Part shown: in pieces, positions 15,125 through 58,161 of the stretch
Layout of the letters: each line of letters starts with the position of its first letter
Position numbering within the stretch: position 1 is the stretch's first letter
Assembly (NCBI GenBank): GCA_050084515.1
Contig: CM114271.1
Coordinates: forward strand, 13,578,001-13,642,000
Direction of reading: 5' to 3'
Source of the DNA: Blasia pusilla
Taxonomy: Eukaryota
Length of the DNA stretch: 64,000 nt
The notes under the pieces: generated by a model
Seen by the model: the letters and a program-made list of their open reading frames with translations, nothing else
Database searches by the model: none
Told to the model about the DNA's origin: nothing
Position numbers and translations under genes: made by a program

Positions 15125-18100
15125 ATGGAGTTTGTACGCTCAGGAGCGGATAGGGATCTTTTACAGCTTCCGCCGGTGCTAATTCTGGTAAAATTTGAGC
15201 TTAACATGTGAATGAGTTCCTTAAACCCTCGGGCTCGGGCCCTTTCGTTCTTGCAATCGTATGCATGCTTGCGATGGAGAACACATGTGGCTCGTCAGTT
15301 GCGCAATTGATGTAAGGCGATTCTTTCTCGTGACGGATCTCCTTGGTGTCTCTGGAACTTGGCAGCCGGCTCTGTCTATAGGGAATGCGGGGCAACTGGC
15401 CACGGATCTGCTCATTTCGACGCGTTCTGTGACCAGGGCAGGATTTCTGGACGATTCGTTGGTACTGGCGTGCGTCGGGAACGATCCTATAGGTCCGCTT
15501 GCGGTGGGAGCACTGACTGTGGCTCTGGAGGGTACGTATCCCCAGAAGGAGACGGCAGCTCAATGCCGCGAAAGGGAGGGTTTTTCGGTGGATGTTGCAG
15601 TCTGGGGTCTTGAAAGAACGAAACTTTTGTGACATCGACCAGCTTTGATGAAGTAGTCGGTTCTTGTAATGTGACTGCGCTATAAGCCTTGGAAGTGGTA
15701 CTCCAGTTTTACAGTTGAGCTAAGAAGCCCTTGCAGTGTCAGGAATCATGTATGGCAGAGTAGTAGGGTTCTTGAGGTCCTACTCACACTGCGGACATTA
15801 AAACTGACGTTCTTCTGATAATTTTATCACTGTTTGCTCGGCAGTTTTTGAAGACGTTGGAAGTGGACTGGCAATCGTGCAGCAGCGAAGTCCGGTTGCG
15901 AAGGTGCAGCTTTTGTCTAACGCTGTCCGTTCTAGATTTTGGTGTTGAGGAGTCGCACCCAAAATTTTTCCTGCTTCTATAGCACCCATTGATGCTGAGA
16001 GAAATTGTTCTGGACCAGATCTTATGGGAAGATTGTGATGTCACAAGTTCTTGCATATATTGTTAAGGTAGAACGGGAATAGCTGCTTGGGCACTTCACG
16101 GACCTGGTTGAAAGAGATCGAATCATGATATTTGATTCAATACATTCCGTCGTATTGATGGTCTTCTCATTTCCACCCCTATGTGGTGTAGGGGTTCTCT
16201 TTGAGTTCATGTGTAGTCTATCTCTGGACCTCATGGATTTGCTGTAAATTCTTTGACCTCTCTCTCTCTCCTCTCATATGGTACTTTCTTCACTTGTTCT
16301 TCTCTCTACACCCATCCCAGTCTCAATCACCGTCCAACCAGGGCGCGGGGTCTATGTTCGCAAGGCTACGACAGGCACTACTTAATGAGTACAGTCTCTC
16401 ACATACAGTTCTCTGTCTTTGAGGTTTCTAAAAGTAGTGCGACTCTTGGTGCAAAAAATTAGTACTATGACTGCAAGGAGTGGCTCATAGAATGGGGTAT
16501 CTCCATCGATGACCTGCCTACAGTCACTCACCAGGACCGGGCTGAACAATTACACAGCAATTACATTTCCACCAACTGGGGTCGGCACCAGTGGCTTTGG
16601 GAAACCAGAGGGAATACATCTCACAAAAATGGAGAGAGAATGTGGCGCTACCACACTCTCATGAACACCGGCAGATCCATGCGGCAAGCCTCTTACAGCT
16701 CTGCCCCCATTCCCAGTAAGTGAGAGATTCCGATGTGGCTCAACTGACCTTGAGATTGAGAAAGGAAAATTCTCACAGAATAAAAGGGAGGACAGATTGT
16801 GTAGATTTTGCAACACGGGGCTCGTTGATGATGAACATCATCACCGCTTCGACTTCACCTTTCACAGTCAAATTAGGCTTGACTTCCCGGATCTCTTAGC
16901 TCACCCGGCCCTCAAGGTCTCGAATTCATGGCTAGGCAAAATCATATTCAGATTCCTAAATTCTTGCTTAGCTGTGTTAAGACTAGGGAAAATCACTTGG
17001 CTCAATGGACCTCTTAGGCCCTTGCTGGTGCTTTGCTTGGTCTTTCTTCAAATTGTTGTTAATTCGCAAAACTAAGTCCCATGGCTCTGTGGGGTCCCCG
17101 TAGACAATAAATCTATTCATTCATTCATTCTCTCTCACTCGCAAAGCAGGCCAAATCTTGATGAAAAAGGTTCAAGAGATTGTCCAAGTAACCAAGCTCC
17201 CAGCAGGGCCTGAACTGTGGGAGCAAGATGAGAAAGCATCTGTGGATACCACAACCAAAGCAGTGGGCAAACGCTCACAGCAGAACAGCACGGAGGAAGC
17301 CATGAAAATATCTGACCTCTCTCTTTTGACGGTATATCCTAAAAAGGCAGAAATGAAGAACTATTTGCGGGGAACCCCTTGCTTGGGAACCTGGCTCAAG
17401 TTCAAGTTTAGGACAGGGACAATCCCCTTGAACCACAAGAAAAGCAGGATGGGAACACAACTAAATTCTTGCGCCTTGTGTGACAATGGGGATGAAACCT
17501 CTAGTCATTACTTGGTCTCCTGCACAAAATTCACAGCACACAGAGCAAGAGCATATGCTGATATTGCTAAATTGTTCATCACATTCAGTAGCCTTGATTC
17601 ATTGCCCAAAGCTGCTGCACTGGTAAGTAATGTCTATTGGGGATCCCCAGGGGAGGCAGCTGGAGACAATGGACTCCCATCGCCAATGAGATCAGAACTA
17701 GGTGTGGAACCCTTGGAGGATAGGCGTGACATTGCCAAGTTGAAATGGCGGAGGCATCTGGAGACAATGGACTCCCATCGCTATCCTAAAGAGGTGATGG
17801 GGAAAATATGGATCCAAAGAAGACCCATAAAGCAGGCCAAATCTTGGACGAAAAAGGTTCAAGAGATTGTGCAAGCATCCAAGCTCCCAGCAGGGCCTGA
17901 ACTGTGGGAGCAAGATGAGAAAGCATTCGTGGATACCATAACCAAAGCAGTGGGCAAATGCTCACAGCAGAACAAGATGGAGGAAGCCATGAAAATGTCT
18001 GACCTCTCTCTTTTGACGGTATATCCCGAGAAGGCAGAACTGAAGAACTATTTGCGGGGAACGCCTTGCTTGGGAACCCGGCTCAAGTTCAAGTTCAGAA

Positions 18101-21100
18101 CGGGAGCAATCCCCTTGAACCATAAGAAAAGCAGGATGGGAACACAACTAAACTCTCGCGCCTTGTGTGATGAAACCTCTAGTCATTACTTGGTCTCCTG
18201 CGCAAAATTCACAACACACAGAGCAAGAGCATATGCTGATATTGCTAAGCTGGTAGTACCAGAATTGTTCAACACATTCAGTAGCCTTGATTCATTGCCC
18301 AAAGCTGCTGCACTGGTAAGTAATGTATATTGGGGATCCCAATCAGGTTAAGTAGATGGTGTGGTGAAGAGTTTCTTGGTTGACACTTGGAAGCTCCGCA
18401 CGAACACGTTGTTTGGTCAGCACTCACACTATATGAGAGTGTCTCCCTCCTCTCATGTGGTATCTTCTTCACTTGCTTCTCTCTCTACACCCATCCCAGT
18501 CTCAAGCACCGTCCAACCAGGGCGCGGGGTCTATGGTTGCAAGGCAACGACAGGCACTACTTAATGAGTACAGTCTCATCCCAGTCTCAAGCACGGTCCA
18601 ACCAGGGCGCGGGGTCTATGGTCTCTCTGATTGGGGATGACCTCTCTCAGGTCAGACATTTTCAGCCATGAAAATGTCTGACCTCTCTCTTTTGACGGTA
18701 TATCCCGAGAGGGCAGAACTGAAGAACTATTTGCGGGGAACCCCTTGCTTGGGAACCCGGCTCAAGTTCAAGTTCAGGATGGGGGCAATCCCCTTGAACC
18801 ATAAGAAAAGCAAGATGGGAACACAACTAAACTCTTGCGCCTTGTGTGACGATGGGGACGAAACCTCTAGTCATTACTTGGTCTCCTGCGCAAAATTCAC
18901 AACACACAGAGCAAGAGCATATGCTGATATTGCTAAGCTGGTAGCACCAGAATTGTTCAACACATTCAGTAGCCTTGATTCATTGCCCAAAGCTGCTGCA
19001 CTTGTAAGTAATGTCTATTGGGGATCCCAATCAGGTAAAGTAGATTGTGTGGTGAAGAGTTTCTTGGTTGACACTTGGAAGCTCTGCACAAACACGTTGT
19101 TTGGTCAGCACTCACACTATATGAAGTGTCTCCCTCCTCTCATATGGTACCTTCTTCACTTGCTTCTCTCTCTACACCCATCCCAGTCTCAAGCACCGTC
19201 CAACCAGGGTGCGGGGTCTATGGTCGCAAGGCTACGACAGGCACTACTTAATGAGTACAGTCTCTGATTGGGGATCCCAATCAGATAAAGTAGATGGTGT
19301 GGTGAAGAGTTTCTTGGTCGACACTTGAAAGCTCTGCACAAACACGTTGTTTGCTCAGCACTCACACTATATGAGAGTGTCTCCCTCCTCTCATATGGTA
19401 CCTTCTTCACTTGCTCCTGTCTCTACACCCATCCCAGTCTCAAGCACCATCCAACCAGGGCGCGGGGTCTATGGTCGCAAGGCTACGACAGGCACTACTT
19501 TAATGAGTACAGTCTCTCTCTGTGTGGTGTATGATTTTGAGGAATTGTCGTGCAAGATTTAAGAAGGAACAGTGAATCCCACAAGTCTTGTCAAATAACA
19601 GTTTCTTCATAGTACACTTCTACTTTCCATGTGTGTTGTAATCAGGGAATGATGATCGAATATGCAAGGCATGTTGCCGAGTTGGCAGAAAGCATGGGCT
19701 GCAAAGAGGTTATAATACTGTCCGGGTTCGATTCTGGTAAACGAGACAGACAAGAGATGGTTGGGTATGTGGTCAAATCAGCTGATTGTGGTTACAGAAA
19801 TCAATCTGGCTGCCTACTCAGATTTTTTACCTTGGTCATGAAAATGTGCAAGTACTGACCATAGCATGCCTTAGGGTTCATCATTGGCTTACCTTCTCCC
19901 ACTATATACATGCATTCTCGCAGAATTCAGTGGGTAGTCTGAAGTTAGACAGCTACAGGATAGTCCAACTCACATGTCTTTTGAGTAGTATCAAGTTCAC
20001 AAAATCACGAGTCTCCTCTGGATGAACATGGAATCATGAGCCAGTGCAAAGAAGTGAAATTACAGCCATCTGTTCTAGCACACTCCACCTAGGCATGAGT
20101 TGAAGGAGTTGACAACTCATGCCTATTAAGCCACAGAGCAGTCTACTGGATTTGATTCTAGTAATGATTCCTGGCTTGGATGGACTCCTGATATATTCAA
20201 TTTCCTATTGCACTCACATAATGAGCCCCGATGATGACATATATACATGATGCCACTGTGCCTTGCAGACCACAAATTTTTTACGTTTCAAATGAGTCAG
20301 ATGTTGCAATCTATGAGCAACTGGGGTGGAAAAGACTTGCCCAGCAAAAATTGTTGGATCAGCCAGGTCAGGTGGATCAAGTTCAGGCTGATGACCTTGC
20401 AGGCCCAAGCGACAAGACAGTACCCTTGACTGAAGAGACTTACTATGCTGGGTTGCCATTCTCATTGTTGTATACTAGCTGCAAGGTACTTGTAGATACC
20501 AACCTGCAGTACATAGTGGTCTTTATATCTAATTTATGATGGTGAATTGCATGCATAGTTTTAGAGAAAGTGATTTGGTCAGGAGAAATTGCAAAAATAA
20601 GCCTTACTTCTTTTGTTCCTTGGTCTGAGCTAAACAGTAGTCCTCTTTGTGAGTCTACGTAAGGTAGTCCTGTTCAAGACCTCATCATTGATTTCAAGAT
20701 GGGCTAAGGTTTCAATGTTTCACTTTGATGTCAGAAGCTCAACAACCCCCTAACCCCCCCCCCCTCTCCTCACTCTTCTTCCTCCTTCCTCCACTACCTG
20801 GACAGCTTCCAATCACATGTCTTGCATGAGTGTCTAATTTTGCTTCTTATATCTGTGACACAAATGAAACTCACACAATGACTACCTGCAGGCCCGAGGG
20901 TTGAAGGTAACATGCTTGCTCACATTCTGTGGGGAAGGAGATAATATACCTGATGCCTTCTTTCTTGCGGACTCCCTTCAGCAGATGCTAGAAAAGAAAA
21001 GCGGTAATGAACCAGGTAATCAGCATATCCTCAGATTGGTTCATTGCTTTCTTTACTCATTGAAGGTTACCTTGATTTTGGATTATTATTGAATCTTTTT

Positions 21101-27779: not shown

Positions 27780-29110
27780 GAATCTACACCAGTCGTTGGA
27801 CCTACTTACACATCTAGTGTTTGGAAATGAGGTTCTTCAACGTTGATGAGTACAGTTGATATATCCACATCACTATCCTTTTCATCTAGTTTTGCTACTT
27901 ACACTTGTTCTGGTTGAAGAGCCTTCTCCTTGATAGAGCTTGAGAGGGAAACTATTGATTTCAACCTTGAGAACATTGTTGGAGTAGGGGGTTTTGGTTT
28001 AGTTTATGAGGGTTGCCTCAATGATGGACTCATAATAGCACTGAAAGTGCTAAGACGGGATGATGAGAAAGGGGATTGTGAGTATTTACTTGAAGAAAAG
28101 TTTTCAAGGAGCCTTCATCATCAAAATTTGGTAAAATTTCTCGGAATCTATGCAAAGGATAGATTCCGATCTTTAGTTTATGACCTCATCTCAAATGGCA
28201 TTGTGGAGTCACACTTGCATGGTCCAGATGTAGTGAATCCTCTCAACTGGGATGCTCGTCTCAAGATAGCCCTTGGATCAACTCTCGTACTTGCCTACCT
28301 ACACGAGGATTCCAATCCCCGTGTAATTCATTGTGACTTGAAAGCAAACAAAATTTTGTTGGAGGAATATTTTGCTCCCAAAATATTTGAGATCGGTCTT
28401 GCAAAAGTGGCATCTAAAGGGGGTGGCGACCATATCTCGTGATTATTAATGGAAACCTTTCGTTATGTGGCACTTGAATATGCCATGACATGGCACCTTC
28501 TAGCGAAGAGTGATGTTTACATTTATGGTGTTGTCCTATTGGAGCTCCATTCTAGAAGGAAACCAGTGGATATAGACATATCCCCGTGGGCAAAGAAATT
28601 TGGTGACATGGGCACAACCCCTTCTCACCACTTATGAAGGAATGGACTTGTTGTTGGATCCAATTCTACAAGATAGTGTACCATTAGACCACGTTGCAAG
28701 GGTAGGAGCCATATCCTACATGTGTGTGCAACCCAAAGTTTGACATCAGTCTTTCAATGGTGAGGTCATCTAAGCTTTGAAACTCATCTACAATGATTCA
28801 GATGCCAATGATGGGAGGGCCTCAATGAATGGGAGTCAGACAGGAGATATGTGTATGGGAACAAGGGATCATCCTTTTCCCCGATCCTTTCACATGCTAA
28901 ATAGTGAACCAACAAATGACTTCAACTCTAGTCCAACTGAAAGCTATGATTTCAAACCTGCAAGGCCACTCTCAGCTTCTACTATAATGTCACAATCTTG
29001 CAGATTCATTCTCCTAATCCCAGGGAACTCTTAAGGTCCTTCACAAGACATAGTGCTTTTGGACCTTTTAGGACCACCAAAAGTAATCTTGTCCGATACA
29101 AAGTATGAAA
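27780..29110 (+). pseudogene. Receptor-like Ser/Thr kinase (ALE2/extensin-like RLK) kinase-domain pseudogene, intronless
   Basis: 'VGVGGFGLVYEG', 'LHHQNLVK', 'VESHLHG..PLNWDARLKIALG..LAYLHEDSNPRVIH', '[15 protein letters not shown]'. Catalytic motifs are decayed (HCD, FEIG), with stops and frameshifts. Confidence 0.88.
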
Positions 29111-29173
29111 CTCTAGAGGTGGTACTATGTGGTCGATATATCCAAATCTCAGTCATTTTCAACTAGTTTTATT

Positions 29174-29301
29174 TGTCGTGCGCATACACATCGCTACACA
29201 ACATACATGGCTGTCATCGAACACACACACAAACACACACGATCCCATGCTAACTCATGGCATCCATACACAGAGGCGAGAAGTACAAAAATATCTCCAA
29301 T
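29174..29301 (-). repeat. Terminal repeat segment Y2 (128 bp)
   Basis: Near-identical to 29799-29926 (tgtcgtgcgcat...aaatatctccaat). Confidence 0.95.
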
Positions 29302-29796
29302 AAAGTAAGATCCAATGTCTCTCTACACCATCTCACACCATAGCTCTCAAAGGTGTGGACTCTCTCTCATGTCAAACCAAACCCACTCTCCTAATGAGAG
29401 GCTTGTGTTACACTCACAAGGCAAGAGACCATAACTCCGCCGCCTCATGCCAAGAGGTTCAACAAAGAGAGAATGAGCCCTCAAGCTCTCTCTCCTTGAG
29501 GTATACCCCTCCCCTCTCCCAAGCTCTCTCCATGGTAACCTATGCTCCCAAGTCACCTCTTTGGCTCTTGACCTGATGTAGGAGGTCAAGGCCCACTTAT
29601 CAAAAATAGAAAGTCAATGATCACCAACATGGAAACTTACCCGAAATAGTAAGTTTCTCTATATTGCTCCAAATGAGCCGAAACAAAGGGGAAACCCGCG
29701 GCCTCAACAGGTTATTCTCGACCTCTTGGGCATGTCCTCCACTACTCGTGAAGACGCTCTGCTAGATCCCACCGATCTATCTTAACACTCGTGACA
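29301..29796 (-). repeat. Terminal repeat segment X2 (~496 bp)
   Basis: Near-identical to 38704-39200 (taaagtaagatcc...cgtgaca). Confidence 0.95.
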
Positions 29797-29798
29797 CT

Positions 29799-29926
29799 TA
29801 TCGTGCGCATATACATCGCTACACAACATACCTCGCTGTCATGGAACACACACACAAACACACACGATCCCATGCTAACTCATGGCATCCATACACAGAG
29901 GCAAGAAGTACCAAAATATCTCCAAT
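29799..29926 (-). repeat. Internal repeat segment Y1, directly after polypurine tract
   Basis: Copy of 29174-29301. PPT 'taagggggag' on the minus strand at 29927-29936. Confidence 0.93.
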
Positions 29927-30112
29927 CTCCCCCTTAGCTGATGGTTAGGTCCCTCTAACTCTAGATAGCCATCTATCCCCATCTATCAAGACAAACATCT
30001 CTAGGACGCTAAGAGCATAAAGGCCGGGTGCTCATGTGACCCCATCGTTAGTCGCCTTCATGTCATCCATGTCACTGAAAAAGTTGGAATCAAAACCTAC
30101 CTAGTATTTCCT

Positions 30113-30260
30113 CTATGTACATCTGGGACACATCCATCATCCCCGAGGAATCCTAGTGAGAGGTGGCGTCAGACATGCCATATGCCAATCTCTCGAACAT
30201 CCATCACAAACTAGCATCGTGGCCGCACCACGGGCAGAACCACACAACATATAACGCAAG
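30113..30260 (-). pseudogene. PHD finger at integrase C-terminus
   Basis: '(Y)MLCGSARGAATMLVCDGCSRDWHMACLTPPLTRIPRG*WMCPRCT' fits C4-H-C3, with the first Cys mutated and one in-frame stop. Confidence 0.88.
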
Positions 30261-33180
30261 CCTACAGGATCTACTGCTAAGCTTGGATCTACTATACAAT
30301 CAATGTTAAGAAGGTGACATGGCGCACAACGACGCACATGGTCCTTCCATACCATACCATCGCGTCCCTCCAACAAGAGAACACCGGATGGCAAAATGTC
30401 ACGCACTCTCAAGATAGTGCGCCCTACAATCACATCCAACGTCGTCGGTGCCGTCTACTGCACTGACGACGTTGATGTTCAGTAGACATAATCTCCTTGA
30501 TGAAACCTCTGGATAGTTGGTCGATAACCACCACCCCGAATAGTCGCATACCTCAACGTATCTCAATGCTGCGCAATCGCCAAGTTCTCGAACGCCATGG
30601 GCATCACTCTCCGAAACAACTCAGCCCTCTGAGAACATGCTCGCACCCAAACATCTGGGTCATGAAGGTCTAGCATCTCACCAGCATCTCGATGAATGGC
30701 CGCAGATAAATCTGGCTCTCGGCCATAAAGTAGCAAGTACGGTGAAAAAGACGCTAAGGATGCCTGCCTGCTGAATCTGTATCTCATCGCCAACCATGGC
30801 AACTGGAGGTCCCAATCTCCTAGGTGACCTCTATGCAAGCCATACTTGTGTAAACCCCTCTTCACCGTTTGCACAACTCTCTTGGCTAATCCCCCATTCG
30901 CCTCGGGATGATCTCGCGAAGTCGTACGGTGGTCGATCAGTGCCTGATCACACAAGGCCTGGAACTAACTGCAAAACTCGGTACGCTGGTCTATCAACAC
31001 CTCAGCCGGTGTGCCATAATGACTGAGCACTCTATCAAGTAAGGAATAAGCTACTCCCTCACTCGCTTTGTCAGGCAATACAACCAACTCGATCCACTTC
31101 GAGAAGTGCTCGACCATCACCAACACATAACGACTGTGACGCTCCGTCAAAGGCGAAGGTCCTGCAAAATCCAAACTCCATCTATACCCTAAGCCCATGA
31201 TCCGTAATGGATGCAACTGTGGAGTTGGAGCATTGAACGATGCTCGAACCCGATCACACACCATGCACCTGGCAACAAACTGCTGAACATCAGTCTCCAT
31301 GCCTCGCCACCAATCTTGAATCTGGAGCAAGCTGTATGTCCGCTTCACCCCAAAGTGACCCAACTCCTCGTGGGCATGCTGCACTAGTCGTGCTCTCTGT
31401 GAAGTATGCGGCACTACGAGTACTCTGCCATCCTCCCAAACCCTCAAAACATGTGTCCCCTCCCAACGGAACCGTCTGGCCCGCTGTAGGATCCGATCCC
31501 GCTCTCTAGCATCTACGGTGCTCACAGCGGTGCCAGTACGAAGGTACTCCAAGACTACTCCATCATCATGAATATCTCGACCACTTGTCGTCTCCTCATT
31601 GGCCTCGGGATCCAAGGACTCTCCACTAGACCTCACCATTGAAGTCTCCACACTCTAGCTCTCCATAGCCAACATGCCTAAATAGGCTGACGCGTGCCAT
31701 CCTGGCACCGACTCCTCATCACTCTCTCCATGCCATCGAGCTCCATTCGCATCTCGCTGACTCGGGAATGGGTTACGACTCAACTCATATGCATCCTGGT
31801 TGAGCGTCCCAGGTCTATGTACCACCTGAAAATCATACTCCTGCAACAACAGAGCCCATCTCGCAAGCTTCCCTATAAGCTTGTCGGACTCCATCAACCA
31901 CTTCAGTGGTTGATGATCAGTGATGATGGTAAAGAGGTTGCCGAATTAGTAACACCTGAAATGCATGACAGCCCATACCGCAACCAAGCACTCACCCTCA
32001 TACGAGTTGTACTTTGCCTGTGCAGCGTTGTTCGAGCGGCTAGCGTAAGCCACCACGAGCTCCCTACCCTCATCATCATGCTGGGTGAGCGCCGCTCCAA
32101 GCCCCAACATGCTCCAATCTGTGTGCAACTGGAAAGGACGTCCCCTGATTGGTCTCCTCAAGATGAGCGCGGACGTCAACCTATCCTTGAGCAACTGAAA
32201 TGCTCGCTCCTGCTCATCCCCCCAGTGCCACTCGTGATCCACCTTGGTGAGCAAGGTCAGCAACTTCACAATCGAACTGAATCCCTCGACGTACCGCCGA
32301 TAGAAGTTCGCCAATCCCATGAATGCGCGAACACGGCTCACATGTGTAGGGTGTGGAATGTGTGAGATAGCCTCTACCTTCGTCTGCTGAACACCAAGGC
32401 CCCCTGGGTATATCGTATGACCCAAGTACTCAATCTGGTCGTAGAAGAACTTGCACTTGCCGGAATGTAGTTTCAGCCCATGCAATTACAATCGTCAAAA
32501 CACCTCCTCTATATGTCGCTCATGCTCCTCAACCGTGGCGCTAAAGACTATAATTTTATCAATATAACACCTAGCAAAATCCAGACCAGACAAGATCCTA
32601 TCCATGACCCTCTGAAACTCAACCCGTGCATTCTTTAACCCAAATGGTAAGAACCGCCATTGGTACAAACAATCCTTCCCGTGAGGATTGATCCCCCAAA
32701 ATGCCGTCTTCTGCCTGTCCTCCAATCTGATAGGCAACTGATGATATCCGGCTCGCAAATCCAATAAACTGAAGACCTTTGCGTGACCAATCGCATCAAA
32801 GATATCCTCAAGGATGGCATGGCATACCTATCGGACTTTGTGTGCCGATTGATAGGTCGGTAATCCCCACACATCCATCTATTCATCCAATTGCCATGCA
32901 CATCCTTCTTGGCGGGCATGATAGTGGCAGATGCATACTCCCCATGCGACATCTCCACTAGTCCTGCTCTGACCAAGTCCTGGCTTTTACTCTGAATCAG
33001 ATCCCTCTCCATATCACTATACCTGTAGGGTCGTCAGAAGATTGGCGTATCACTTGACAACTCAATGCGGATCCCCGGTCCCTTCAGCGTACCCAAATCC
33101 TCCATGCTAAACGCAAAGCAGCTCCTATAACTCCTGAGGAACTGATGTATTCGGCGCCGCTCTCCTCTTGTCAACTTAGG
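30260..33180 (-). pseudogene. Gypsy pol: RT-RNaseH-integrase (frameshifted)
   Basis: ORF pieces 32635-33012, 32495-32764, 31946-32485, 31655-31897, 30965-31651 and 30563-30955 carry canonical motifs in Gypsy order. Confidence 0.93.
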
Positions 33181-33329
33181 GCCCATATCTGGCTCCCTAG
33201 TTTCCATCGTGACTACGGTAGGACTCTCCGGCGCGGGTATCTGTGGTTGCTATGGTACAACCCCATCTCGAACAACAACACTTGGCCGCTCTCTTGCAGC
33301 CAACTGCAAACTCTGATCTCCTCCACGTG

Positions 33330-34290
33330 CAGTGCCCGAAACCACACTCAATGTTCTGGCCTGACCTAAGACATGGCGTCGTGATGCCTCTGACATTGAC
33401 GGTAGTGCCGTCAATCCTATGGGAAATCCCATCGCTCGCTCTCTCTCATCGGCGTTGGGCTCCACCAACCGCTGAACTTGGTCTTTCCAAACCAAGCCAG
33501 GACTGACCTCCTTGTATGCATAGGAAGTGGGAAAACTCACAAACATAGGCAAGGCTGCCCGCGGCCTGCCTACCCTGTTGACCACAATCAACGATGGTCA
33601 ATCATCGTGCCTCACTGCTTGTGATCGACGACCTGGATCGAGAATGGAATCCACTAACAAATAGGAGGGGCGCTCCACTCTCACATACGCCCTCCGTAAC
33701 ACCGTATGGGGCACCAAGTTGGTCCACCATAGACGCGGGCGATGGGCTCTAGAACCTACACTCGCCGCATCCAAGAACACTGCTGGGCCGATCCAAGCAC
33801 CCACCTGAAGAGCACTCATCACTACCCGTGACGTGGAGTCTCCTAAGATCGGCACATTCTTCAGAATATAGGTTGGAGAACAAGACTGATGCTCCTGCAA
33901 TTGCCGTAAGACCCTCAACATCTCCCAAAACAACCTGAACCAAGTGTCAGCCAACCCGCTGCATCGTCCAGCACTTCATTGGCCCTGACATGGCCAACCG
34001 GAAATGACCAAATCAATGGTCCCTACCCGCTCTAAGTCCTACGCCCCCAACAACGAAATATCCCTCAGTAGGGAACCCTTGTACTACGGACGCAGATAAT
34101 AAGTGGAGAAAACGTAGGTGTAACTACGCCACATGTCGTAGTGAAACGCGCCTCGTAACATCATCACTCTCCACATACAAGTACTTCTGCACTCTCACTC
34201 ATGTCTGCACAACAGCAGCTAACCTGGTGCTAATCCCTCCAAAGAGATCTAACACTCGAATACCCTCCTCCAAGATACACCACACAATGG
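33330..34290 (-). pseudogene. C5 cytosine DNA methyltransferase domain (DNMT3/DRM-like) within pol
   Basis: Motif I 'IRVLDLFGGIS' (~34230-34265); motif IV 'IDLVISGWPCQG' (33982-34017); motif VI 'YILKNV' (E to K); motif VIII 'AHRPRLWWTNL'; motifs IX-X 'ERERAMGFP...RRHVLGQA'. All in order. Confidence 0.92.
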
Positions 34291-34599
34291 GTGTGGTATC
34301 GAAGGGTGTCATTGTAGCACTCCCAGCTACCTCGGGTTCCTCAGACCTATCATGCTCCGGTGCAAAAGCCTCGCTCCACGCGGTCTGCACGTGCTCATCT
34401 GCCAATCGTTGAAGCTCCTCAGTTGAGCCCCACTGCAGCTCCTCTCCTCCATGGAATGATGCGGCTACCATAACACTCCTCTCCATTGAAATGTCAGGAA
34501 AGGGATTATCTTTTGCATGGACATGTCCCTCGATCAAATCACTAGGCCAAGTGATGGCACTGCTAAATGCTGCCAAGGTCGCCATCTCTCCTAGCCGTT

Positions 34600-37180
34600 G
34601 CTCAATCACTGCACATGTGAATCGAACGGGTAATGAACTAAGGCGTCCATCACTTGACTGTCATCGTGGTCTGTACGACGTTGACTCCTCTCAAATATCC
34701 AGGGAAAACCCCATCGGGTATAACACAACTGTACCAACCAAGATGTCGTAGGACTTTGCATTAGTCACTATCACCTTGGCTCGCACCACGGACTCATCTG
34801 TAGGATGTCTCGGGAAAATCCTCATCACGACCTACTGTCGGGTGATATACTGTGTGGTACTCGCTCCACCCAAGGATGTCTGTATCTGGAATGGACAACG
34901 CTCCACATCGGCTCTCGTCAAGCCCAATCCTCTGAATGACGCTTTCCCCAACATCAGGGGTTGTGCTCCTGAATCCAACAAGACGCGTTGCGGACTAAAA
35001 GCTCTACCCTCGGGACTCACAAACTGGAAGACCTCTCCTTGGTTATCCAGCAACACAACACCAGGAGAAGCCATGGCACGCTCTATCGCGGGTCTAGCAA
35101 GCATCTCCGCCATCATAGCAGCCACAGCCTGCCATGAATCTGACGTGGACGGTCCGAGCATCTGCTCCAAAGGTAGGTCCATCACCTCCTCTGCAAGAAC
35201 TCCAACTCCACGCTCACATAGTGTAGCGGCCAGCCGAACAGCCTCGGCGGGCGTACCCGCCAACGTCATAACATCGGAAGCAGAAAATAAAGGAGTGCGG
35301 TACACAATGGTGGTCGCCCCCAACAACGTGCTCGACACGTGCCCCTCCTAAGCATCAACAATAGGAGTCGTCGCACTCGTTTCTCCCATCGCCTCCGTGC
35401 GTGCACACCAACAACATCACCAACTCTCCAGGAACTCTGATCAAGACCCATTGATGGGGTCCTCATCGCCTCAGACATCATGAAAGACTGAGGAAGCCTA
35501 GTCTTTTTCCTGGCTTCCCCTCGCTGTGGATCCAACTCTGCAGCTGCTCTACGCGTCACAATTGCGGCTGCCTCCATCTGGGCAGCCCCGCACATCCAAC
35601 CAGGATCCTTCATATCTCTGGCTGCTCCATATGATGTCGATGCCATGGATCCGACATTGGGTAATCTCAATGCCATAGCGGCAATCTGCTGTTGTAGCTG
35701 CTGTATCTGAGCAGCCATCCCAGCCTCATGTCCGGCGTCTCCCTCGGCCCGTCTAGGTGGTGGTACTCTACCTCCTCCATGGGCAGCTCCACCACCCTGT
35801 CGGGCAACTCTAGCTCCTCGTCCCCCAACGCGACCACCTGGTGCACGATCTCTAGGCCCACCTGGACCGGCTACTCGCTGTGGTGCCCTCTCGAGCCCTC
35901 GGTCCGGATGTAACTCAGGATGTAAACTAAAAATGGCGTGTGTATGACCATACCTCTGACAATAGTCACATTGATAACCTCCTGGTGCAGCACCATCTCC
36001 TCCTCTATGCTAAGGCACACGTCCATAACCCTGACGAGTGCAATCGCGCTGATGATGGGCTCCACCACATGACCAACAAGTAATAGTAGGCGGCTGCTGT
36101 TGAGCCGCATATGAAGGCGCAGGTCTTTGTGGCACGGGCTCTCGGTATCCTCCCTGAGCTCGTGGTGCCACAGTTGACCTATCTCGGAGTCCACGTTGTT
36201 GCATAGGTGGTGCAGACAATCGTGATTGCTCTCGCCCATAACCCATGGTGGCTACGCTCTCCTCCGCCATGTTGCGCTCAATGTTCTCGGCGGTCCTAAA
36301 AACATCTCTCAACGTAGGGGAGGTATTCATAAGAAGCACCCCTCCGTACCCGTGTCCGCAGGGTCCGATCCAAGTCTGCGTACCATGACTGGACAGCTTG
36401 AGCGTTTATCACCCCCTCAGTGATGTTGATCAACCGGCGCAAGCGAGTGTAAGCCTAACGCAAACTCTCACCCGGGCACCTCTGGAATTCGTGGATGCTC
36501 CGCAACTTCTCCGTCCGTACCCTCTGATAGCTCGCCCTCAACTCAACAAAGAACTCAACGACGAGGTTGAACCTCGGACAAACCCGACTAGACGGTGCAA
36601 CTGCTCGAGTGCAAGTGACCCCTCCTAAAACATCACTAGTGGAAGAGGAAGTAGCCTCTCCTGAATCCTCCTCCTCATCTGGGAACGGCTCAGTCCATGA
36701 TACATAGTGTGGGTCATAGTAGAGTCGCCATGCCTCAATCTCCTCGACATATCTGTGGGAGAACTCATGGTAATCGTCCATGGATGGCCCCTCTAAATGC
36801 TGGAACATACCGTTCCATGCTGTAAACGGGTTGAACTCTCTAAAGTTTCTAGCCCGCTGTGAGTCACACTAACTCCTAAACTCCGCAATGAAGTCGTGTA
36901 TCTCTATGGTGCCTACAGCACCCGAAAACCTACGCGGTCCTCTACCCCGGTTGTCCATCTCGTACGCCCAACTAGTAGGACCACTCAATGTGTACGATGG
37001 ATCACTAAAACACTTGTGCGAGGTTTCGAGGGTCTCCACGTGAGAGACCACCTCGATCTCCTTCTGTGTCGTCTTCAGATAAGGGGGAGCGTGTAGACCC
37101 TCCACAAGTACTCTCAAGTCCACTACCTCGCCTCTCAAAATCTTGAAAGGACATCGTGATGGCCCTTGTGCCCCTCTCAC
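34600..37180 (-). pseudogene. gag (zinc knuckle) and aspartic protease of the Gypsy element
   Basis: 'FQRCPGESLR', 'CWSCGGAHHQRDC', a second knuckle-like 'CDYCQRYGH', 'RVLLDSGAQPLMLG', 'YDILVG'. Confidence 0.85.
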
Positions 37181-38703
37181 ATGATCACTCTCAACCTTGC
37201 GAGTAATCCCTCAATTACTCATCCCAAACATGTGGCACTCGATCTACACTCTCCCTCCCCGAGACGTGTAACGTGCGGCAACAAGCGGCGTGATACGGCA
37301 AATCGACCAGGCTATCATCTCATTGACAACCTACCCTCAACTCCAGACATCCCACACAGGTCTATGTCCCCTAAACCTCATACATAAGTGATCCTCTCAG
37401 CATCCACACAACCCAATATCCCCAAATAAACTACCCAAATCCCAGAATCCCTCATGCGTGTAAGGTAAATGACCAAAATGGATAACCTGAACACATGTCG
37501 ATGTCGCTCCTCAGCAACTGCAAATCTCAACCCAAATTGGTTGTGGAGAAAACTCCTCCAATCATCAAGTCATACTCCTCCCGTACTGACACTACTCAAA
37601 ACCTCTCGATAGACAGTGCGGTTCCAGTGGAACGGTGCGGCGTTGCAGGCGGCACGGAACGGCTACGAACGACACGGCCCTCGATGGTGGGACGTGGCAC
37701 TCGGAGGCATACCCTCCTCAATCAACAATAAACCCACACTGTGCCCCACAATGATGATGCGGCTCCGCGATAGAGACGGTGCGGTGCCGCCACGAGCGAC
37801 ACGACGCGGCAATCGGCGGCGCGTTGCGGCTACGGGCGTCACGGCACAGTACTCGATCGTCGTCGAGCGGCTACCAATTACAACATAGCAGCATGAAATC
37901 AAAACTCAAACACCATAACCAGAGGTCATATGCCATCATTGGTTGATGACGAAATTGCGATGACGGTGGCGGTCAAAACAAAGTACGTGGTGGCGAAGCA
38001 AGTCAGAGAATCAACGAACGTCGTGAAAGACCCTCCACTCCGTAACGACGGCAATGGCAACCAAAGGGTGGAAAACGGATGGTGGACCATTGATGGTGAG
38101 GGTTGATTGTCGATGGCAGAATGTTGACGGCGACGGCCCCCGCCAGCGTGGCGCGTGATTTAGGGTTTGAACAATTTAACCCTAAAAATCGCCTAGCAAT
38201 GGCAGTTTTGCAAGATTGACCATAACTTTTCACTCGCAACTCCAAATTGCGCATTGTTTGTTGCACAACATGCACAACTTCACGATCTACGACAGTGTGA
38301 ACAAATAATTGGAATTGGACATTCCAGAAAAAAAAATTGAAGGGGACTGTCGTGAAGCCCAATATCTCTTTCTCCTACAAAAAATTCGACAGCGCTTCTG
38401 CGCTGATTTCTCCCAATGAAAATGTAAAACCTGTAAAAATACAAATCAGCAAGCTACATGGTGCTCCCGAGAGCATCAGCATGGGGCAACCCGCCCCCAT
38501 ACTCAATCCCTATCAAAAATTGGGTAGCGCTTCCGCGCGCCACTCTTCCACACGAAAAATCGACAAATGCAAAGAACAATCAAAGCTGCCCTTGCTCCGG
38601 TGAGCACTCCCATGAGCTTCTGAATGGGAAACAAGGTCCCCAACCTACAAAAACAATGAGTGACCAGCGAGCTCCCCCATGAAACTCTCTCATTCTCTCT
38701 TTG

Positions 38704-39200
38704 TAAAGTAAGATCCAATCTCTCTCTACACCATCTCACACCATAGCTCTCAAAGGTGTGCACTCTCTCTCATGTCAAACCAAACCCACTCTCCTAATGA
38801 GAGGCTTGGGTTACACTCACAAGGCAAGGGACCATAGCTCTGCCGCCTCATGCCAAGAGGTTCAACAAAGAGAGAATGAGCTCTCAAGCTCTCTATCCTT
38901 GAGGTATACCTCTCCCCTCTCCCAAGCTCTCTCCATGGTAACCTATGCTCCCAAGTCATCTCCTTGGCTCTTGACCTGATGTAGGAGGTCAAGGGACACT
39001 TACCAAAAAATAGAAAGTCAATGATCCCCAACATGGAAACTTACCCGAAATAGTAAGTTTCTCTATATTGCTCCAAATGAGCCGAAATGAAGGGGAAACC
39101 GGGGGCTTCAGCATGTCATTCTCGACCTCTTGGGCCTGTCCTCCACCACTTGTGAAGACGCTCTGCTAGATCCCACCGATCTATCCTAACAATCGTGACA
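38704..39200 (-). repeat. 5' terminal repeat segment X1 (~497 bp)
   Basis: Copy of 29301-29796. It is not followed (on the minus strand) by Y or by a TGG-starting PBS. Confidence 0.95.
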
Positions 39201-39213
39201 TATTGAATTTCAT

Positions 39214-39645
39214 TTGGACTTCTTGTTGGATTCAATTCTAAGAGATAGTGTATCATTTACCACGTTGCAAGGATAGCAATCATAGCCTTCGTATATGTGC
39301 AACCCAAAATTTTACATCAGCCTTTCATGGGCGAGGTCATCCAGGCTTTGAAACGCGTCTACAATGATTCACATGCCATTGATGGAAGGGGCTCAATGAA
39401 TGGGAGTCACATAGGAGATTTGTGTAGGGGAACATATACATGCCAAATACTGAACCAACAAGTGATTTCAACTCTAGTCCAACTAAAAGTTGTGATTTCC
39501 AACCTGCAAATCCATTTTCACCTCCTATTGTATTGTCAGAATCCAACAGATTGAGTCACCAACTCTCAAGGTCCTTCAGAAGACATAGTGATAGTGGATC
39601 TCTTAAGACGACCAAAAGTAAGCATGTCTGTGTGATTGGAACTTG
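39214..39645 (+). pseudogene. Second, diverged copy of the RLK C-terminal segment
   Basis: Aligns by eye with 28643-29095; 'QPFMGEVIQALKRVYNDS'. Confidence 0.85.
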
Positions 39646-44086: not shown

Positions 44087-44180
<94 letters not shown>

Positions 44181-46132
44181 TCATTAAGTAGCGTATGTCG
44201 TAGCCTTGCGACCATAGACCCCGCGCCCTGGTTGGACGGTGCTTGAGATTGGTATGGGTGTAGAGAGAGAAGCAAGTGAAGAAGGTACCATATGAGAGGA
44301 GGGAGAAACTCTGATATAGTGTGAGTGCTGACCAAACAACGTGTTTGTGCGGAGCTTCCAAGTGTCAACCAAGAAACTCTTCACCACACCATCTACTTTA
44401 CCTGATTGGGATCCCCAACAGACATTACTTACTAGTGCAACAGCTTTGGGCAATGAATCAAGGCTACTGAACGTGTTGAACAATTCTGGTACTACCAGCT
44501 TAGCAATATGAGCATATGCTCTTGCTCTGTGTGTTGTGAATTTTGCGTAGGAGACCAAGTAATGACTAGAGGTTTCGTCCCCATCATCACACAAGGCACA
44601 AGAGTTTAGTTATGTTCCCATTCTACTTTTCTTATGGTTCAAGGGGATTTCCCCCATCTTGAACTTGAACTTGAGCCGGGTTTCCAAGCAAGGGGTTCCC
44701 CGCAAATAGTTCTTAAGTTCTACCCTCTGGGGATATACCGTCAAAAGAGAGAGGTCAGACATTTTCATGGCTTCCTCCGTGTTGTTCAGCTATGAGCGTT
44801 TGCCCATTGCTTTGGTTATGGTATCCACGAATGCTTTCTCATCTTGCTCCCACAGTTCAGGCCTTGCTAGGAGCTTGGATGCTTGCACAATCTCTTGCAC
44901 CTTTTTTGTCCAAGATTTGGCCTGCTTTACGGGTCTTCTTTGGGTCCAGGTTTTACCCCATCACCTCCTTAGGATAGCGATGGGAGTCCATCGTCTCCAA
45001 GTGCCTCCGCCATTTCAACTTGGCGATATCACGTCTATCCTCCAAGGGTTCCATACCAAGTTCTGATCTCACACCAACTTAGGCTGTTTGTAAGGAAGTT
45101 GACATCATACCTCGAAATGCCCTCACCTGCACACCTTCAAGCCTATCCCTTTGTTTGGTGTTGGCATCCCACACTGCTGCCTTGTATTCCTACGAGGGAC
45201 GAATGGTATGCAAAATGACACAGCGCTTTACTTTTGATGTGATATCTCAGTAGTCTTCTTAATGTGTACATCCCACATGCCATCTTACGAGAATTATATG
45301 CCCAGATAGGTGTATGTAGCCACACAGGGGATCTCTTGGTCACCCCAGTACCACTGTTGGTCTTGGTCCTCCTCCTTGCCATTGAAAATCATCACACTGC
45401 ACTTTAGTACATTTGCCTCCATGCCCCACATGTCACGCTAGAGTTTGGTCAAGGATATCATCTCTTGGAGTTTCTCTCCTATTTCCTTGAGGCCACCAAA
45501 GTCATCAGCAAACATGAGGGCAACAATAGAGTTGTTGCCCACATGTATGCCTAGTCCACTATCCTCCATTTCTTCCAATAGGGAATTCACAAAAATGTTG
45601 AAGAGGGTGGGGGAGAGCGAGCATCCTTGAGCCACTCCTTGCTTGATGTCGAATGTCCCACTCTTTTGGCCATTCACCACAACTCTACTCCTTGTGTTCT
45701 GGTATATCTTCTCCACCACCCTCCACATTTTCCCTCTCAACCCCACCTTCCACAAGCTATAAGAAAGCCCGTCACGCCATACAATGTCGTATGCCTTCTT
45801 GAGGTCCAAGAAGAAGCAATAGGTGGGTTTCCCCTCTTTTTTCCTACCCTAGATGATCTGACTGAAGGTGAAGATGTGGTCCACGCATCCTCGGGCTTGC
45901 CAGAAGCCAGCCTTGACTTCCTTGATGACAAAATTCTCCTCCAGGTACACAGAGATCCTATTGTTGAGTATACGGCAAAGGAGATTCGTAACATCACTCA
46001 GCAATGTAATACCCCTGTAGTTTCTAGGGTCTTCTCGCTCACCCTTCTTGAAGAGGTTCACGATGACTCCCATCCGCCATCTTTGTGGGATAACTTCTGC
46101 CCACCAGACCAGGTTGAAGAGACTCACTAGAG
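44087..46132 (-). mobile_element. Family A LINE, 5'-truncated, with (TC)n tail
   Basis: RT motifs 'NYRGITLLS', 'DLKKAYD', 'GVAQGCSLSPTLF', 'LMFADD'; C-terminal CCHC. Tail 44087-44177. Confidence 0.92.
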
Positions 46133-50900: not shown

Positions 50901-52139
50901 TTATAAGGTCTTGCCTCTTTTGATTTGTTACTTATGATGATGTGTTTTCTAGCGTTTTGACCCTTGGGGTCCCACGAACTTGATTTATTTACCATTTCCC
51001 ATTTACCATATTGAAAGTGGAATCTCCGGGAAACAAGGGCAACTTAGATAACTACTTGCTAATTCTGATTTACAATAGCCAAAATATACAACAATAGAAC
51101 TCTAAGAACCCATAGCTATTACATATTACTACATGCATAAGTACTACTAGGAATGGTTGCAGCCTCTGTAGTACTTGGCGTTGTATCTTATAAAAGACTG
51201 TGTTTGACTAAGAAACGGTGGGTACTTGTCGTCCTTTAAGCTTATAGTGCGTACATGCGTTGGAGACGAGATGGATGTGGGAACGATGATCTGCCCTACA
51301 AGAGGCCATGGCCATTGCATGCCATATTATTGGGAGGACTCATATATTAGATTCTCATACGATTATGCTTAAGTGAGAGATTCACACGTACCCAAGGTGG
51401 TTTTTGGGATATGTGAGCATTTTGCCCTTTTCGGCCATGTTTGTTTTATGTTGAGTTTGAGCATTTACAGCCCAATTTGTTGGTTTCCATAGCCTAATGA
51501 TGATTGGATAACTATGGGAAGCCAAAAAGGAATTCCAACTTGAGACCAAGATGGAGAAGGATATGTTCCTATTTGTGGGATGGCTTGTGATGTAGAACCT
51601 TCATATCCTTGCAACTGTAAATATGAAATATTCATCATTTGTATTATCTGAAGGGATGTGTGTAGATGAAGTAAAAATCCTCTGACATAGAAATTAATGG
51701 TGCTTTAGAACAATGGAAAATGTATCCTTTCTAGTGGAGTTGAAGGTTTTTGACCATTTTGTGTTTTTTGCATTTTTGGTCTTGGTAGTAAGGGTTATTT
51801 TCCTTTGTTGTATCCTACAACACATCAAAGATCCAAAAAATCAATGAGCAGATTTTGATGCATAATCTTCAAGAAAAAAATCATTTCAAAAGTTGAAATG
51901 AATCCAATTACCCTCCCCTCCTCTAGCCACGCCTCATTGTCATCATCATCAAAGGTGTAATGTCTCATTCTCTTAGCAAAGGAACTATCTTGTACTTTCG
52001 CTTTGCCCTCCAATCTGCAACTTCACCATAAGAGAAGAGTAGAAGTTGAAGAGTGTAGTACCTTCCTCCTCTTCTAACCCCTTGGCGCCTCAAATGTTAC
52101 AAATAAAACCAAAATGTGTAAGAGCAAGGGGCCATAAAC

Positions 52140-53912
52140 ATGCACATACGCATCGCTAGACAACATACATCATTGTCATCGAATATACACACAAACACAC
52201 AAGATATCATACTGACTCATGACTCCAAATATCTCCAATAAATCACAAGCACTCAAAATGTCTCACCATGTGCACACAAACTAAATCTCTCTCTCTCTTC
52301 TATATATATAGAAGGTAGATGATGAGGTGGAGTTGGCAACCCATATAACGATTGGTTCTCCCTAGCTGAGGTGGGAGCAGCAATCAAAGAACTTGTGAAC
52401 CACAAAGTAGGCGGTGGTGATGAGCTTGTGAATGAATTGTTGAAGTATGGAGATGCTGCTATGGCTCGTTCTCTAGTGAGTCTCTTCAACCTGGTCTGGC
52501 GGGAAAAAGTTATCCCACAAAGATGGCGGGTGGGAGTCATCGTGAACCTCTTCAAGAAGGGTGAGCGAGAAGACCCTAGAAACTACAGGGGTATTACATT
52601 GCTGAGTGTAGTTGGGAAGCTCTTTTGCCGTATACTCAACAATAGGATCTCTGTGTACTTGGAGGAGAATTCTGTCATCAAGGAAGGCCAGGCTGGCTTC
52701 CGGCAAGCCCGAGGATGCATGGATCACATCTTCACTTTCAGTCAGATTATTCAGGGTAGGAAAAAAGAGGGGAAACCCACCTATTGCTTCTTCTTGGACC
52801 TCAAGAGGATATACAACACTGTATGGCGTGATGGGCTATCTTATAGCTTGTGGAAGGCGGGGCTGAGAGGGAAAATATGGAGGGTGGTGGAGAAGATGTA
52901 CCAGAACACAAGGAGTAGAGTTCTGGTGAATGGCCAAAAGAGTGAGACATTCAACATCAAGCAAGGAGTGGCTCAAGGATACCCGCTCTCCCCCACCCTC
53001 TTCAACATTTTCCTGAATTCCCTATTGGAATAAATGGAGGATAGTGGACTAGGCATACGGGTGGGAAACAACTCTGTTGTTGCTGATGACTTTGATGGCC
53101 TCGAGGAAATAGGAGAGAAACTCCAAGAGATGATCTCCTTGACCAAAATCTGATGTGACACGTGGGGCATGGAGGCAAATGTGATGAAGTGCGTTGTGAT
53201 GATTTTCAATGGCAAGAAGGAGGACCAAGATTGAGCTCCCAGCAGGGCTTGAATTGTAGGAGCAAGATGAGAAAGCATTCATGGATACCATAACCAAAGC
53301 AGTGGGCAAACGCTCACAGCAAAACAGCATGGAGAAAGCCATGAAAATGTCTGACCTTTCTCTTTTGACGGTATATCTCGAGAAGGCATAATTGAAGAAC
53401 TGTTTGCGGGGAAATCCTTGCTTGGGAACCTAGCTCAAGTTCTAGTTCAGAACGGGAGAAATCCCCTTGAACCATAAGAAAAATAGGATGGGAACACAAC
53501 TAAACTCTTGCGCCTTGTGTGAGGATGGGGATGAAACCTCTAGTCATTATTTGGTCTCCTATGAAAAATTCACAATATACAGAGCTAGAGCATATGCTAA
53601 TATTGCTAAGTTGGTAGCACCAGAATTGTTCAACACATTGAGTAGCCTTGATTCATTGCCCAAAGCTGCTGCACTGGTAAGTAATGTCTATTGGGGATCC
53701 CAATCAGGTAAAGTAGATGGTGTGGTGAAGAGTTTCTTGGTTGACACTTGGAAGCTCTGCACAAACACGTTATTTGGTCAGCACTCACACTATGTGAGAG
53801 TGTCTCCCTCCTCTCACTTGCTTCTCTCTCTACATCCATCCCAATCTCAAGTACCGTCCAACCAGGGCGCGGGGTCTATGGTGGCAAGGCTACGACATGC
53901 ACTACTTAATGA

Positions 53913-53985
<73 letters not shown>

Positions 53986-58022: not shown

Positions 58023-58161
<139 letters not shown>

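Follow-up and report, generated by a model that had tools for sequence, protein, structure and literature searches.

In retrotransposons with long terminal repeats (LTRs) and in retroviruses, the integrase acts on the LTR ends that are made by reverse transcription. The element described here, which lies in a 64,000-nucleotide (nt) stretch of the Blasia pusilla genome (assembly GCA_050084515.1, CM114271.1:13,578,001-13,642,000; this whole stretch is the window, and all coordinates are positions within it), is a degenerate Ty3/Gypsy retrotransposon with a DDE integrase, a C5-DNA methyltransferase (DNMT) domain within pol and a PHD finger at the C-terminus. Its two repeat segments, X and Y, do not form a pair of LTRs but are split into the order X-internal-Y-X-Y. 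This split layout is a trait of the lineage and not a one-off of the locus.

The layout has a counterpart among the PAT/Ngaro elements (order DIRS), which are built as A1-internal-B1-A2-B2, in which the B1-A2 joint likewise consists of joined termini, and for which a circular or joined-end intermediate is likewise implied. However, PAT/Ngaro elements are described as using a tyrosine recombinase and as lacking target-site duplications (TSDs) (PMC8969392), whereas the window element has a DDE integrase, TG...CA ends and 4-bp TSDs. Closer in coding content is KnitGypsy-Dnmt3 of Klebsormidium nitens, whose DIRS-like repeats are noted, with no mechanism attached, in the legend to Fig. 4c of de Mendoza et al. 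2018 (PMC5890265). That element also combines a Gypsy-type pol containing an internal C5-DNMT with a DIRS-like repeat layout, but it differs in host lineage, the best named relatives of the window element being liverwort and moss proteins. Section 9 and the Fig. 4 legend of the 2018 paper give no TSD, terminus, primer-binding site (PBS), polypurine tract (PPT) or mechanism for KnitGypsy-Dnmt3. Beyond that legend, the literature searched yielded no other description of split repeats on a Gypsy element with a DDE integrase, and no paper reporting a DNMT-bearing Gypsy element in liverworts.

Two further bodies of work bear on how such a layout could be made. The integrase of foamy virus cuts 2-LTR circles at their palindromic LTR-LTR junction and leaves processed ends (PMC1180852), and work on HIV-1 appears to point the same way (PMC1905944, PMC4372172). 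The retroviral junction resembles a palindrome found in the present lineage in that CA...TG half-sites face each other and an integrase cut would yield two processed ends. In retroviruses, though, the palindrome exists only after the ends have been ligated, and cutting it restores the normal linear genome; here it is present in every LTR, 95-129 nt from the LTR start and with a 2-nt spacer, and cutting it would permute the genome. Self-priming of reverse transcription, in turn, is known in Tf1/sushi elements and, among plants, is predicted for the Tcn1 clade of mosses and club-mosses (Neumann et al. 2019, PMC6317226). As in the present lineage, those elements are described as having no obvious tRNA-type PBS and a predicted RNA 5' end complementary to the sequence after U5, but they carry ordinary paired LTRs and a chromodomain in place of permuted repeats and a PHD finger. 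Among algal elements, Chlamydomonas TOC1 is cited as having an unusual arrangement of its long terminal repeats and is classed as a non-autonomous DIRS element (Craig et al. 2022, PMC9940879), and Gypsy-7a_cRei, as described in the Fig. 6 legend of the same paper, could be a mild, short-Y form of the permutation discussed here. To this background the present analysis adds a conserved internal palindrome with a fixed 2-nt spacer, 4-bp TSDs, a predicted self-priming PBS, a majority form without terminal repeats, the absence of the complementary permutation, and the spread of DNMT-bearing Gypsy elements to liverworts and mosses.

Split repeats and their recurrence in related loci

The locus was mapped by repeat search and by self-BLAST of the window from 26 to 42.5 kb, with the junctions read directly (positions in Table 1). 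In minus-strand order it consists of a TSD, X1, gag-pol, the PPT, Y1, 2 nt, X2, Y2 and the second TSD. The two X copies are 94.2% identical in self-BLAST (497 nt, E 0) and the two Y copies 94.6% (129 nt, E 6e-53), the latter with alignment extents of 29798-29926 and 29173-29301. X1 opens with TGTCACGA directly after the tetranucleotide AATA, and Y2 closes with GCACGACA and is followed by AATA again, a duplication that reads TATT on the plus strand. At the internal joint Y1 runs out in CACGATA, the spacer AG follows, and X2 begins once more with TGTCACGA. The window holds only one full copy of the element.

Relatives were sought by scanning metagenome contigs, which are short-read assemblies, with an integrase alignment (A1); 520 stretches matched, 430 were confirmed as relatives, and 80 loci (numbered with the prefix L) were kept. 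Loci longer than 7 kb were compared with themselves by BLAST, X and Y probes were searched by BLAST against all 80, and contigs sharing the same flank were merged and counted as one distinct locus. A strict census, limited to loci in which a full Y immediately follows a G-rich PPT and has 40 nt or more of sequence downstream, left 36 of the 80 whose 3' end is informative. In 15 of these (11 distinct) the 3' end reads Y-2 nt-X-Y. In the other 21 (18 distinct) a single Y gives way at once to unrelated DNA, so that the copy is X-internal-Y with no terminal repeat, and this single-Y form is the majority, at 18 of 29 distinct loci. The 44 loci outside the census comprise 40 without a PPT-adjacent Y (the contig ends early, the locus belongs to a different subfamily, or the PPT is degraded), three with a truncated Y1 and one at a contig edge. 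Two further subfamilies that are unmatched by the X and Y probes also carry Y-2 nt-X-Y, namely L054, with an integrase 78% identical to that of the window, and L069 (the same locus as L070), with 53%.

The 5' ends are more uniform. Probe BLAST found neither a Y before the 5' X nor a Y-X after it at any of 14 distinct 5' ends, and two complete LTRs occur at none of them. Where both ends of a copy are in view, five are X-internal-Y-X-Y, seven are X-internal-Y, and none is X-Y-X-internal-Y. All copies examined are dead, with a longest open reading frame (ORF) of at most 545 amino acids and X1/X2 identities of 82-94%, and the single-Y copies are decayed to a similar degree as those with X-internal-Y-X-Y. 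Two loci, L045 (the same as L047) and L067 (the same as L068), are internally deleted derivatives, their internal regions measuring 2.5 and 3.6 kb, one in each of the two classes; they keep X, the PBS, part of the integrase region, the PPT and Y, and are presumably non-autonomous.

The ends themselves are well conserved. The termini TGTCA... and ...GCACGACA are kept even in the subfamily at 53% identity, and in 14 of 14 distinct cases, the window included, the Y1|X2 joint is the element's right end, 2 nt and the left end. The spacer varies in sequence (GC, AC, AT, GT, AG) and is constant in length. All four of the other full X-internal-Y-X-Y copies (L012, L022, L046 and L080) have 4-bp TSDs around X1...Y2; these are AAGG, TCTC, AATC and AATG, the first nine nucleotides of X1 being damaged in the AATG copy. 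Among the seven full X-internal-Y copies the TSD is a perfect 4 bp in four, agrees at three of four positions in two and at two of four in one. The TG...CA ends and short TSD that go with a DDE integrase are thus found in the window and in its relatives, and the absence of a TSD that marks DIRS elements is not.

Much of this had been foreseen from the letters of the window. The original prediction had described the X and Y repeats, the 2-nt spacer between Y1 and X2, the TATT duplication around the whole unit and the DDE integrase; the self-comparison it called for reproduces its repeat map, the other features are where it placed them, and Pfam matches the integrase (Table 1). Its reading of the internal joint, as the element's own right end, 2 nt and left end, holds across subfamilies. 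It proposed checking whether the arrangement, the spacer and the 4-bp TSD recur, and all three do; copies with two complete X+Y LTRs, which by its own account would have refuted it, are missing from all 14 distinct 5' ends. What it did not anticipate is that most of the family would be X-internal-Y.

Primer sites and the limits of the LTR

The limits of the unit made by reverse transcription can be approached through its two priming sites. The PPT, which reads AGGGGGGCGAG in the L family, always adjoins the start of Y. At the other end, the last base of X1 and the sequence following it form, in the window, a 16-nt exact complement of a site within X that lies 177 nt upstream; L012 has a 17-nt exact complement 176 nt upstream, in a sequence unlike that of the window. 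None of 2000 shuffles reached a complement of 16 nt for the window or 17 nt for L012. Across the L family, the complement reaches at least 10 nt in seven of 15 distinct 5' ends, at a distance of 156-181 nt, each equalled in no more than 9 of 1000 shuffles; in the other eight it spans 6-8 nt only, no more than chance would give, as is to be expected of decayed copies. This complementarity predicts a PBS of the self-priming type. Folding of the predicted RNAs pairs the 5' end with the PBS (z -3.7 and -2.9, the minimum free energy fold agreeing), although the RNA ends were chosen from the complementarity, and the folds thus serve as illustration and not as independent proof. In a MAFFT alignment (A2) the PBS of the window lies 10 columns off that of the L family, and the comparison between families rests on the positions of the complements.

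Since the PPT abuts Y and the PBS abuts X, the LTR of reverse transcription is best read as Y-NN-X, where NN is the 2-nt spacer. A PBS at the U5 end and a PPT at the U3 start are found for the unit Y+X and not for the integrated termini. By this assignment U3 comprises Y and the first ~320 nt of X, and R-U5 the last ~177 nt of X. The original prediction had likewise taken the LTR to be Y+X, starting after the PPT, and the positions of the PPT and PBS agree; the end that it proposed, a CA at 38702, has to be moved to 38704. Homology between X1 and X2 stops there (...CTTACTTTA), and the CA at 38703-38702 lies outside the repeat and is missing from the X2|Y2 joint.

Judged from its sequence, the X2|Y2 joint resembles a pair of joined cDNA ends. 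In 10 of 12 distinct cases it consists of the U5 end, one G or A, and the U3 start, and one of the 12 has one extra nucleotide. The joint of L014 (the same locus as L022) holds a 21-nt insert made up of a 17-nt filler, which resembles U5 sequence 30 nt upstream, and CGAG, the last four bases of the PPT. The PPT bases in this joint show that its Y2 started from a plus-strand primer cut, a real cDNA end. The constant length of the spacer fits copying under constraint, and the variation of the joint fits its formation afresh with every insertion.

In the L family, X also contains a hairpin immediately upstream of the predicted RNA start (L012 ~1832-1860), CTCAAAGAAC-ATAG-TTCTTTGAG; the window's family has an imperfect version of it. 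The PBS sequence recurs in the left arm, so that the self-primer can pair with either the arm or the PBS, and such alternative pairing could act as a switch.

Candidate routes to the permuted insertion

How might a Gypsy element come to insert in this form? The reading that we favour, with somewhat better than even confidence, is that the locus is an old, inactivated copy from a streptophyte Ty3/Gypsy lineage whose joined-end cDNA is opened at a palindrome inside the LTR. The integrated copy appears to be a circular permutation of the LTR-gene-LTR layout, with the integrase cutting the palindromic site within the LTR. Two enzymes would then set different ends, reverse transcription those of Y-NN-X and the integrase TGTC.../...GACA within it. 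Canonical reverse transcription would produce a linear cDNA, (Y-X)-internal-(Y-X), of which the U5 end would be joined to the U3 start, in a 2-LTR circle or else once cleavage has taken place. The integrase would nick 3' of both CA dinucleotides of the 5'-LTR palindrome to leave two 3'-processed ends with 2-nt 5' overhangs, and insertion of these with a 4-bp stagger would give X-internal-Y-NN-X-joint-Y. Within the Y-NN-X unit the integrase ends would face each other across 2 nt, much as if an LTR-LTR circle junction were built in. The two CA dinucleotides of the palindrome are 2 nt apart on opposite strands, so that under the known chemistry of DDE integrases the cut should leave recessed CA-3'OH ends with 2-nt 5' overhangs; processed retroviral ends have just this form.

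The two classes of copy would differ in what they can do. X-internal-Y-NN-X-Y would be the minimal copy that keeps a promoter (in X1), terminal redundancy (R in X1 and X2) and both integrase ends and, as the only form to keep all of these, could serve as the master copy. An X-internal-Y copy would arise if both internal sites of the linear cDNA were cut, or the single site of a 1-LTR circle, or alternatively if Y1 and Y2 recombined later. Such a copy has no 3' R and should be unable to replicate. A bolder version of the favoured reading, to which we would give a little less than an even chance, extends it to the whole lineage. In charophytes, liverworts and mosses, replication would pass obligatorily through a joined-end (2-LTR-circle-like) cDNA linearised by the integrase at its built-in palindrome, and most insertions (X-internal-Y) would lack a terminal repeat and be dead on arrival. 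The lineage would then be a natural case of the circle junction as integration substrate, a long-abandoned model, and convergent with the tyrosine-recombinase retroelements.

Several points tell against the opening of a joined-end cDNA. The circle, the cDNA ends, the transcript ends and the activity of the integrase are all deduced from the sequences of dead copies, and the loci used for comparison come from short-read metagenome assemblies. A 2-LTR circle has two equivalent sites, and the product expected from cutting the other one, X-joint-Y-NN-X-internal-Y, is seen at none of the 14 distinct 5' ends; five X-internal-Y-X-Y copies against none of the predicted form would have a probability of about 0.03 under symmetry, a figure that comes from small numbers. 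The near-uniform X2|Y2 joint also fits an origin in the reverse transcriptase and not in host end joining, and the single-Y copies could equally reflect direct insertion or later deletion. The original prediction of a 2-LTR circle opened within one LTR at a TGTC/GACA site accordingly stands as to structure, which the PPT and PBS, the termini and the recurrence bear out, whereas the circle itself is conjecture and the X-Y-X-internal-Y form that it predicts did not appear.

The asymmetry would be explained by what is the main rival, a one-sided template switch. Here the same internal integrase sites are used with no ligated circle: on reaching the U5 end the reverse transcriptase switches to the U3 start, so that only the right end of the cDNA carries a tandem LTR, and the segment then excised by the integrase runs from the first left half-site to the last (or next) right one. 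Such a route explains why X-Y-X is absent from 5' ends (0 of 14) while both Y-X-Y and single Y occur at 3' ends, and the nearly constant one-nucleotide joint (10 of 12) fits a polymerase that adds one nucleotide before switching, but end-to-end switching at one end only has to be assumed. Another circle-free version, in which the integrase cuts the left-LTR palindrome and integrates both new ends while host end joining closes the outer cDNA ends, is as symmetric as the circle model and leaves the asymmetry unexplained. The insert bearing the last four nucleotides of the PPT fits the joining of a true cDNA end. The data do not separate these circle-free routes from the circle model, and we regard the two versions taken together as unlikely. 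A different question is whether all insertions begin as X-internal-Y-X-Y, with the X-internal-Y copies arising later by Y1/Y2 recombination, which would be compatible with circle and circle-free models alike. The Y copies are direct repeats of 95-129 nt that lie 290-500 nt apart, the copies are all old and have had time for such deletion, and the intact TSDs of the X-internal-Y copies are what it predicts. On the other hand, the single-Y form is in the majority (18 of 29 distinct loci) and decayed like the other, and direct excision at the two internal sites of the linear cDNA would give the same product in one step fewer; universal later deletion is a real possibility, though a tentative one that we hold at rather less than even.

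Two other explanations carry far less weight. The repeat layout A1-internal-B1-A2-B2 matches that of DIRS-type elements (PMC8969392 and the PMC5890265 legend), and on that reading a tyrosine recombinase acting on a circle, possibly supplied in trans, would mobilise the element as it does DIRS, PAT and Ngaro. This is very improbable here: no tyrosine recombinase was found in the 20 ORF pieces scanned or in the DNMT read-through, a conserved DDE integrase is present, and TG...CA ends with recurrent 4-bp TSDs contradict the DIRS type, which is described as lacking TSDs (PMC8969392). Least probable of all, to the point of being negligible, is an accident of this one locus, whether a local rearrangement, a solo LTR beside a truncated element or a misassembly. 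The window does hold a single full copy, but the layout, the spacer length and the TSD length are repeated at 13 other distinct loci in three subfamilies, which refutes a one-off; moreover, the repeat copies differ by 6-18% and so are not collapsed repeats, and unique flanking sequence begins exactly at the X start and at the Y end.

Coding region, surrounding repeats and implications

The coding region is that of a Ty3/Gypsy element long out of use. Reverse transcriptase, RNase H and integrase follow one another on the minus strand in the Ty3/Gypsy order, and frame 1 of the internal region alone contains 111 stops. Pfam was run on 20 stop-free ORF pieces and on one read-through of the DNMT, with the residue X at stops. 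The reverse transcriptase (RVT_1, E 7e-16), RNase H (RT_RNaseH_2, E 2.6e-27, together with RT_RNaseH) and integrase (Integrase_H2C2, E 8.9e-16; rve, E 1.7e-9) were all recognised, and the H, H, C, C and D residues of the integrase are kept in alignment A1. The PHD finger at the C-terminus of pol (PF00628, E 9.5e-7), present in most of the integrase homologues, stands in place of a chromodomain, which was not found at the integrase C-terminus. Between the gag/protease region and the reverse transcriptase lies the DNMT, which in read-through scores 29.1 bits against a cutoff of 22 (PF00145, E 8.8e-7) and in the unbroken relative L002 reaches E 3.5e-13; a homologous stretch is present in 37 of the 80 metagenome loci. 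The gag, protease and 5' leader pieces had no Pfam match, and the DNMT read-through matched PF00145 only.

Protein comparisons point to a bryophyte as the probable source of the DNA. Among liverworts, proteins of Calypogeia fissa and Riccia sorocarpa match the integrase at 73-77% identity, one protein of Klebsormidium nitens matches it at 52%, and the DNMT domain of the family is 51-70% identical to many gene models of Marchantia polymorpha, Calypogeia fissa and Sphagnum; no K. nitens protein is among the 76 DNMT matches listed.

Table 1. Positions of the element's parts in the window
Feature	Position	Strand	Basis or remark
TSD, 5' side	39201..39204	-	AATA (TATT on the plus strand), read directly; matches 29170-29173
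X1, integrated 5' terminal repeat: 3' part of U3 and R-U5 of the reverse-transcription LTR	38704..39200	-	starts TGTCACGA, integrase left end
Predicted R start and self-primer	38865..38880	-	16-nt exact complement of the PBS, 177 nt before the X end
PBS, self-priming type (predicted)	38689..38704	-	overlaps last base of X1; complementarity and fold
gag-like remnants, frameshifted	35269..36868	-	CCHC-type zinc-knuckle strings in translations; no Pfam match
C5 cytosine DNA methyltransferase domain in pol, broken by stops	33337..34083	-	PF00145
Reverse transcriptase, two frame pieces	32498..33033	-	RVT_1 on 32498-32827
RNase H	31658..32485	-	RT_RNaseH_2 and RT_RNaseH
Integrase: HHCC zinc domain and DDE core, running on into the next frame piece	30566..31654	-	Integrase_H2C2 and rve at 30968-31654
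PHD finger, C-terminal end of pol	30152..30247	-	PF00628
PPT AAGGGGGAG, adjoining Y1	29927..29935	-	read directly; relatives keep AGGGGGGCGAG
Y1, 5' part of U3	29799..29926	-	ends CACGATA, a mutated GACA integrase right end
Spacer AG, centre of the palindromic joint GACA-NN-TGTC	29797..29798	-	read directly; 2 nt in relatives
X2	29301..29796	-	repeat of X1
Y2, joined to the X2 end (U5 end to U3 start)	29174..29301	-	ends GCACGACA, integrase right end
TSD, 3' side	29170..29173	-	read directly

The DNA around the element has a history of its own. The interior (30001-38000) has a G+C content of 51-53% and a strong negative GC skew on the plus strand, and the surrounding DNA is mostly 34-44% G+C. 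Directly outside the element, 28643-29093 and 39215-39628 form a direct repeat of 76% identity over 451 nt in self-BLAST, the copies of which stood ~90 nt apart before the insertion; the repeat, which the original prediction had not noticed, has no Pfam match and was found at no other place in the window and in none of the 80 loci. Because its copies are 76% identical, against 94% for X1 and X2, it is far older than the X repeats, and it probably represents an old tandem duplication that the target already carried when the element inserted. The same identities, and its absence elsewhere, led to the rejection of two other readings, namely that its copies are the LTRs of a surrounding element or a large target duplication.

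Elsewhere in the window, ~52135-54684 on the minus strand holds the remnant of a related subfamily, 72-84% identical. Its X starts with TGTCACATTG near 54684, preceded by unrelated DNA, and its X end and Y start meet near 52236, with LINE-like (long interspersed nuclear element) sequence in between; the end of Y is degraded and no TSD is readable. It looks like a solo X-joint-Y that was later split by nested insertions. A second repeat family, with tandem and dispersed copies 87-95% identical, occupies 16263-19521, 44166-45071, 45361-46132 and 52326-53982; its ORFs match RVT_1 (E 7.7e-23) and, weakly and below the Pfam cutoff, zf-RVT, and they are probably fragments of non-LTR (LINE-like) elements. 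Long period-2 microsatellite tracts are common to 58025-58160, 44087-44177 and 53916-53982, two of them at edges of LINE-like repeats.

The significance of the lineage lies in the relation between its two enzymes: reverse transcriptase and integrase would define different ends, and would do so consistently across subfamilies. If the route proposed here is correct, extrachromosomal joined-end cDNA would be a productive intermediate and not a dead end, and the lineage would offer a natural system for the study of integrase cleavage at palindromic junctions. Annotation tools that look for paired LTRs would also miss or misclassify these elements, ~60% of whose copies have no terminal repeat. In two plant lineages the same layout goes together with a DNA methyltransferase encoded by the retrotransposon, and the DNMT-bearing Gypsy lineage is wider than the single alga of its first report.

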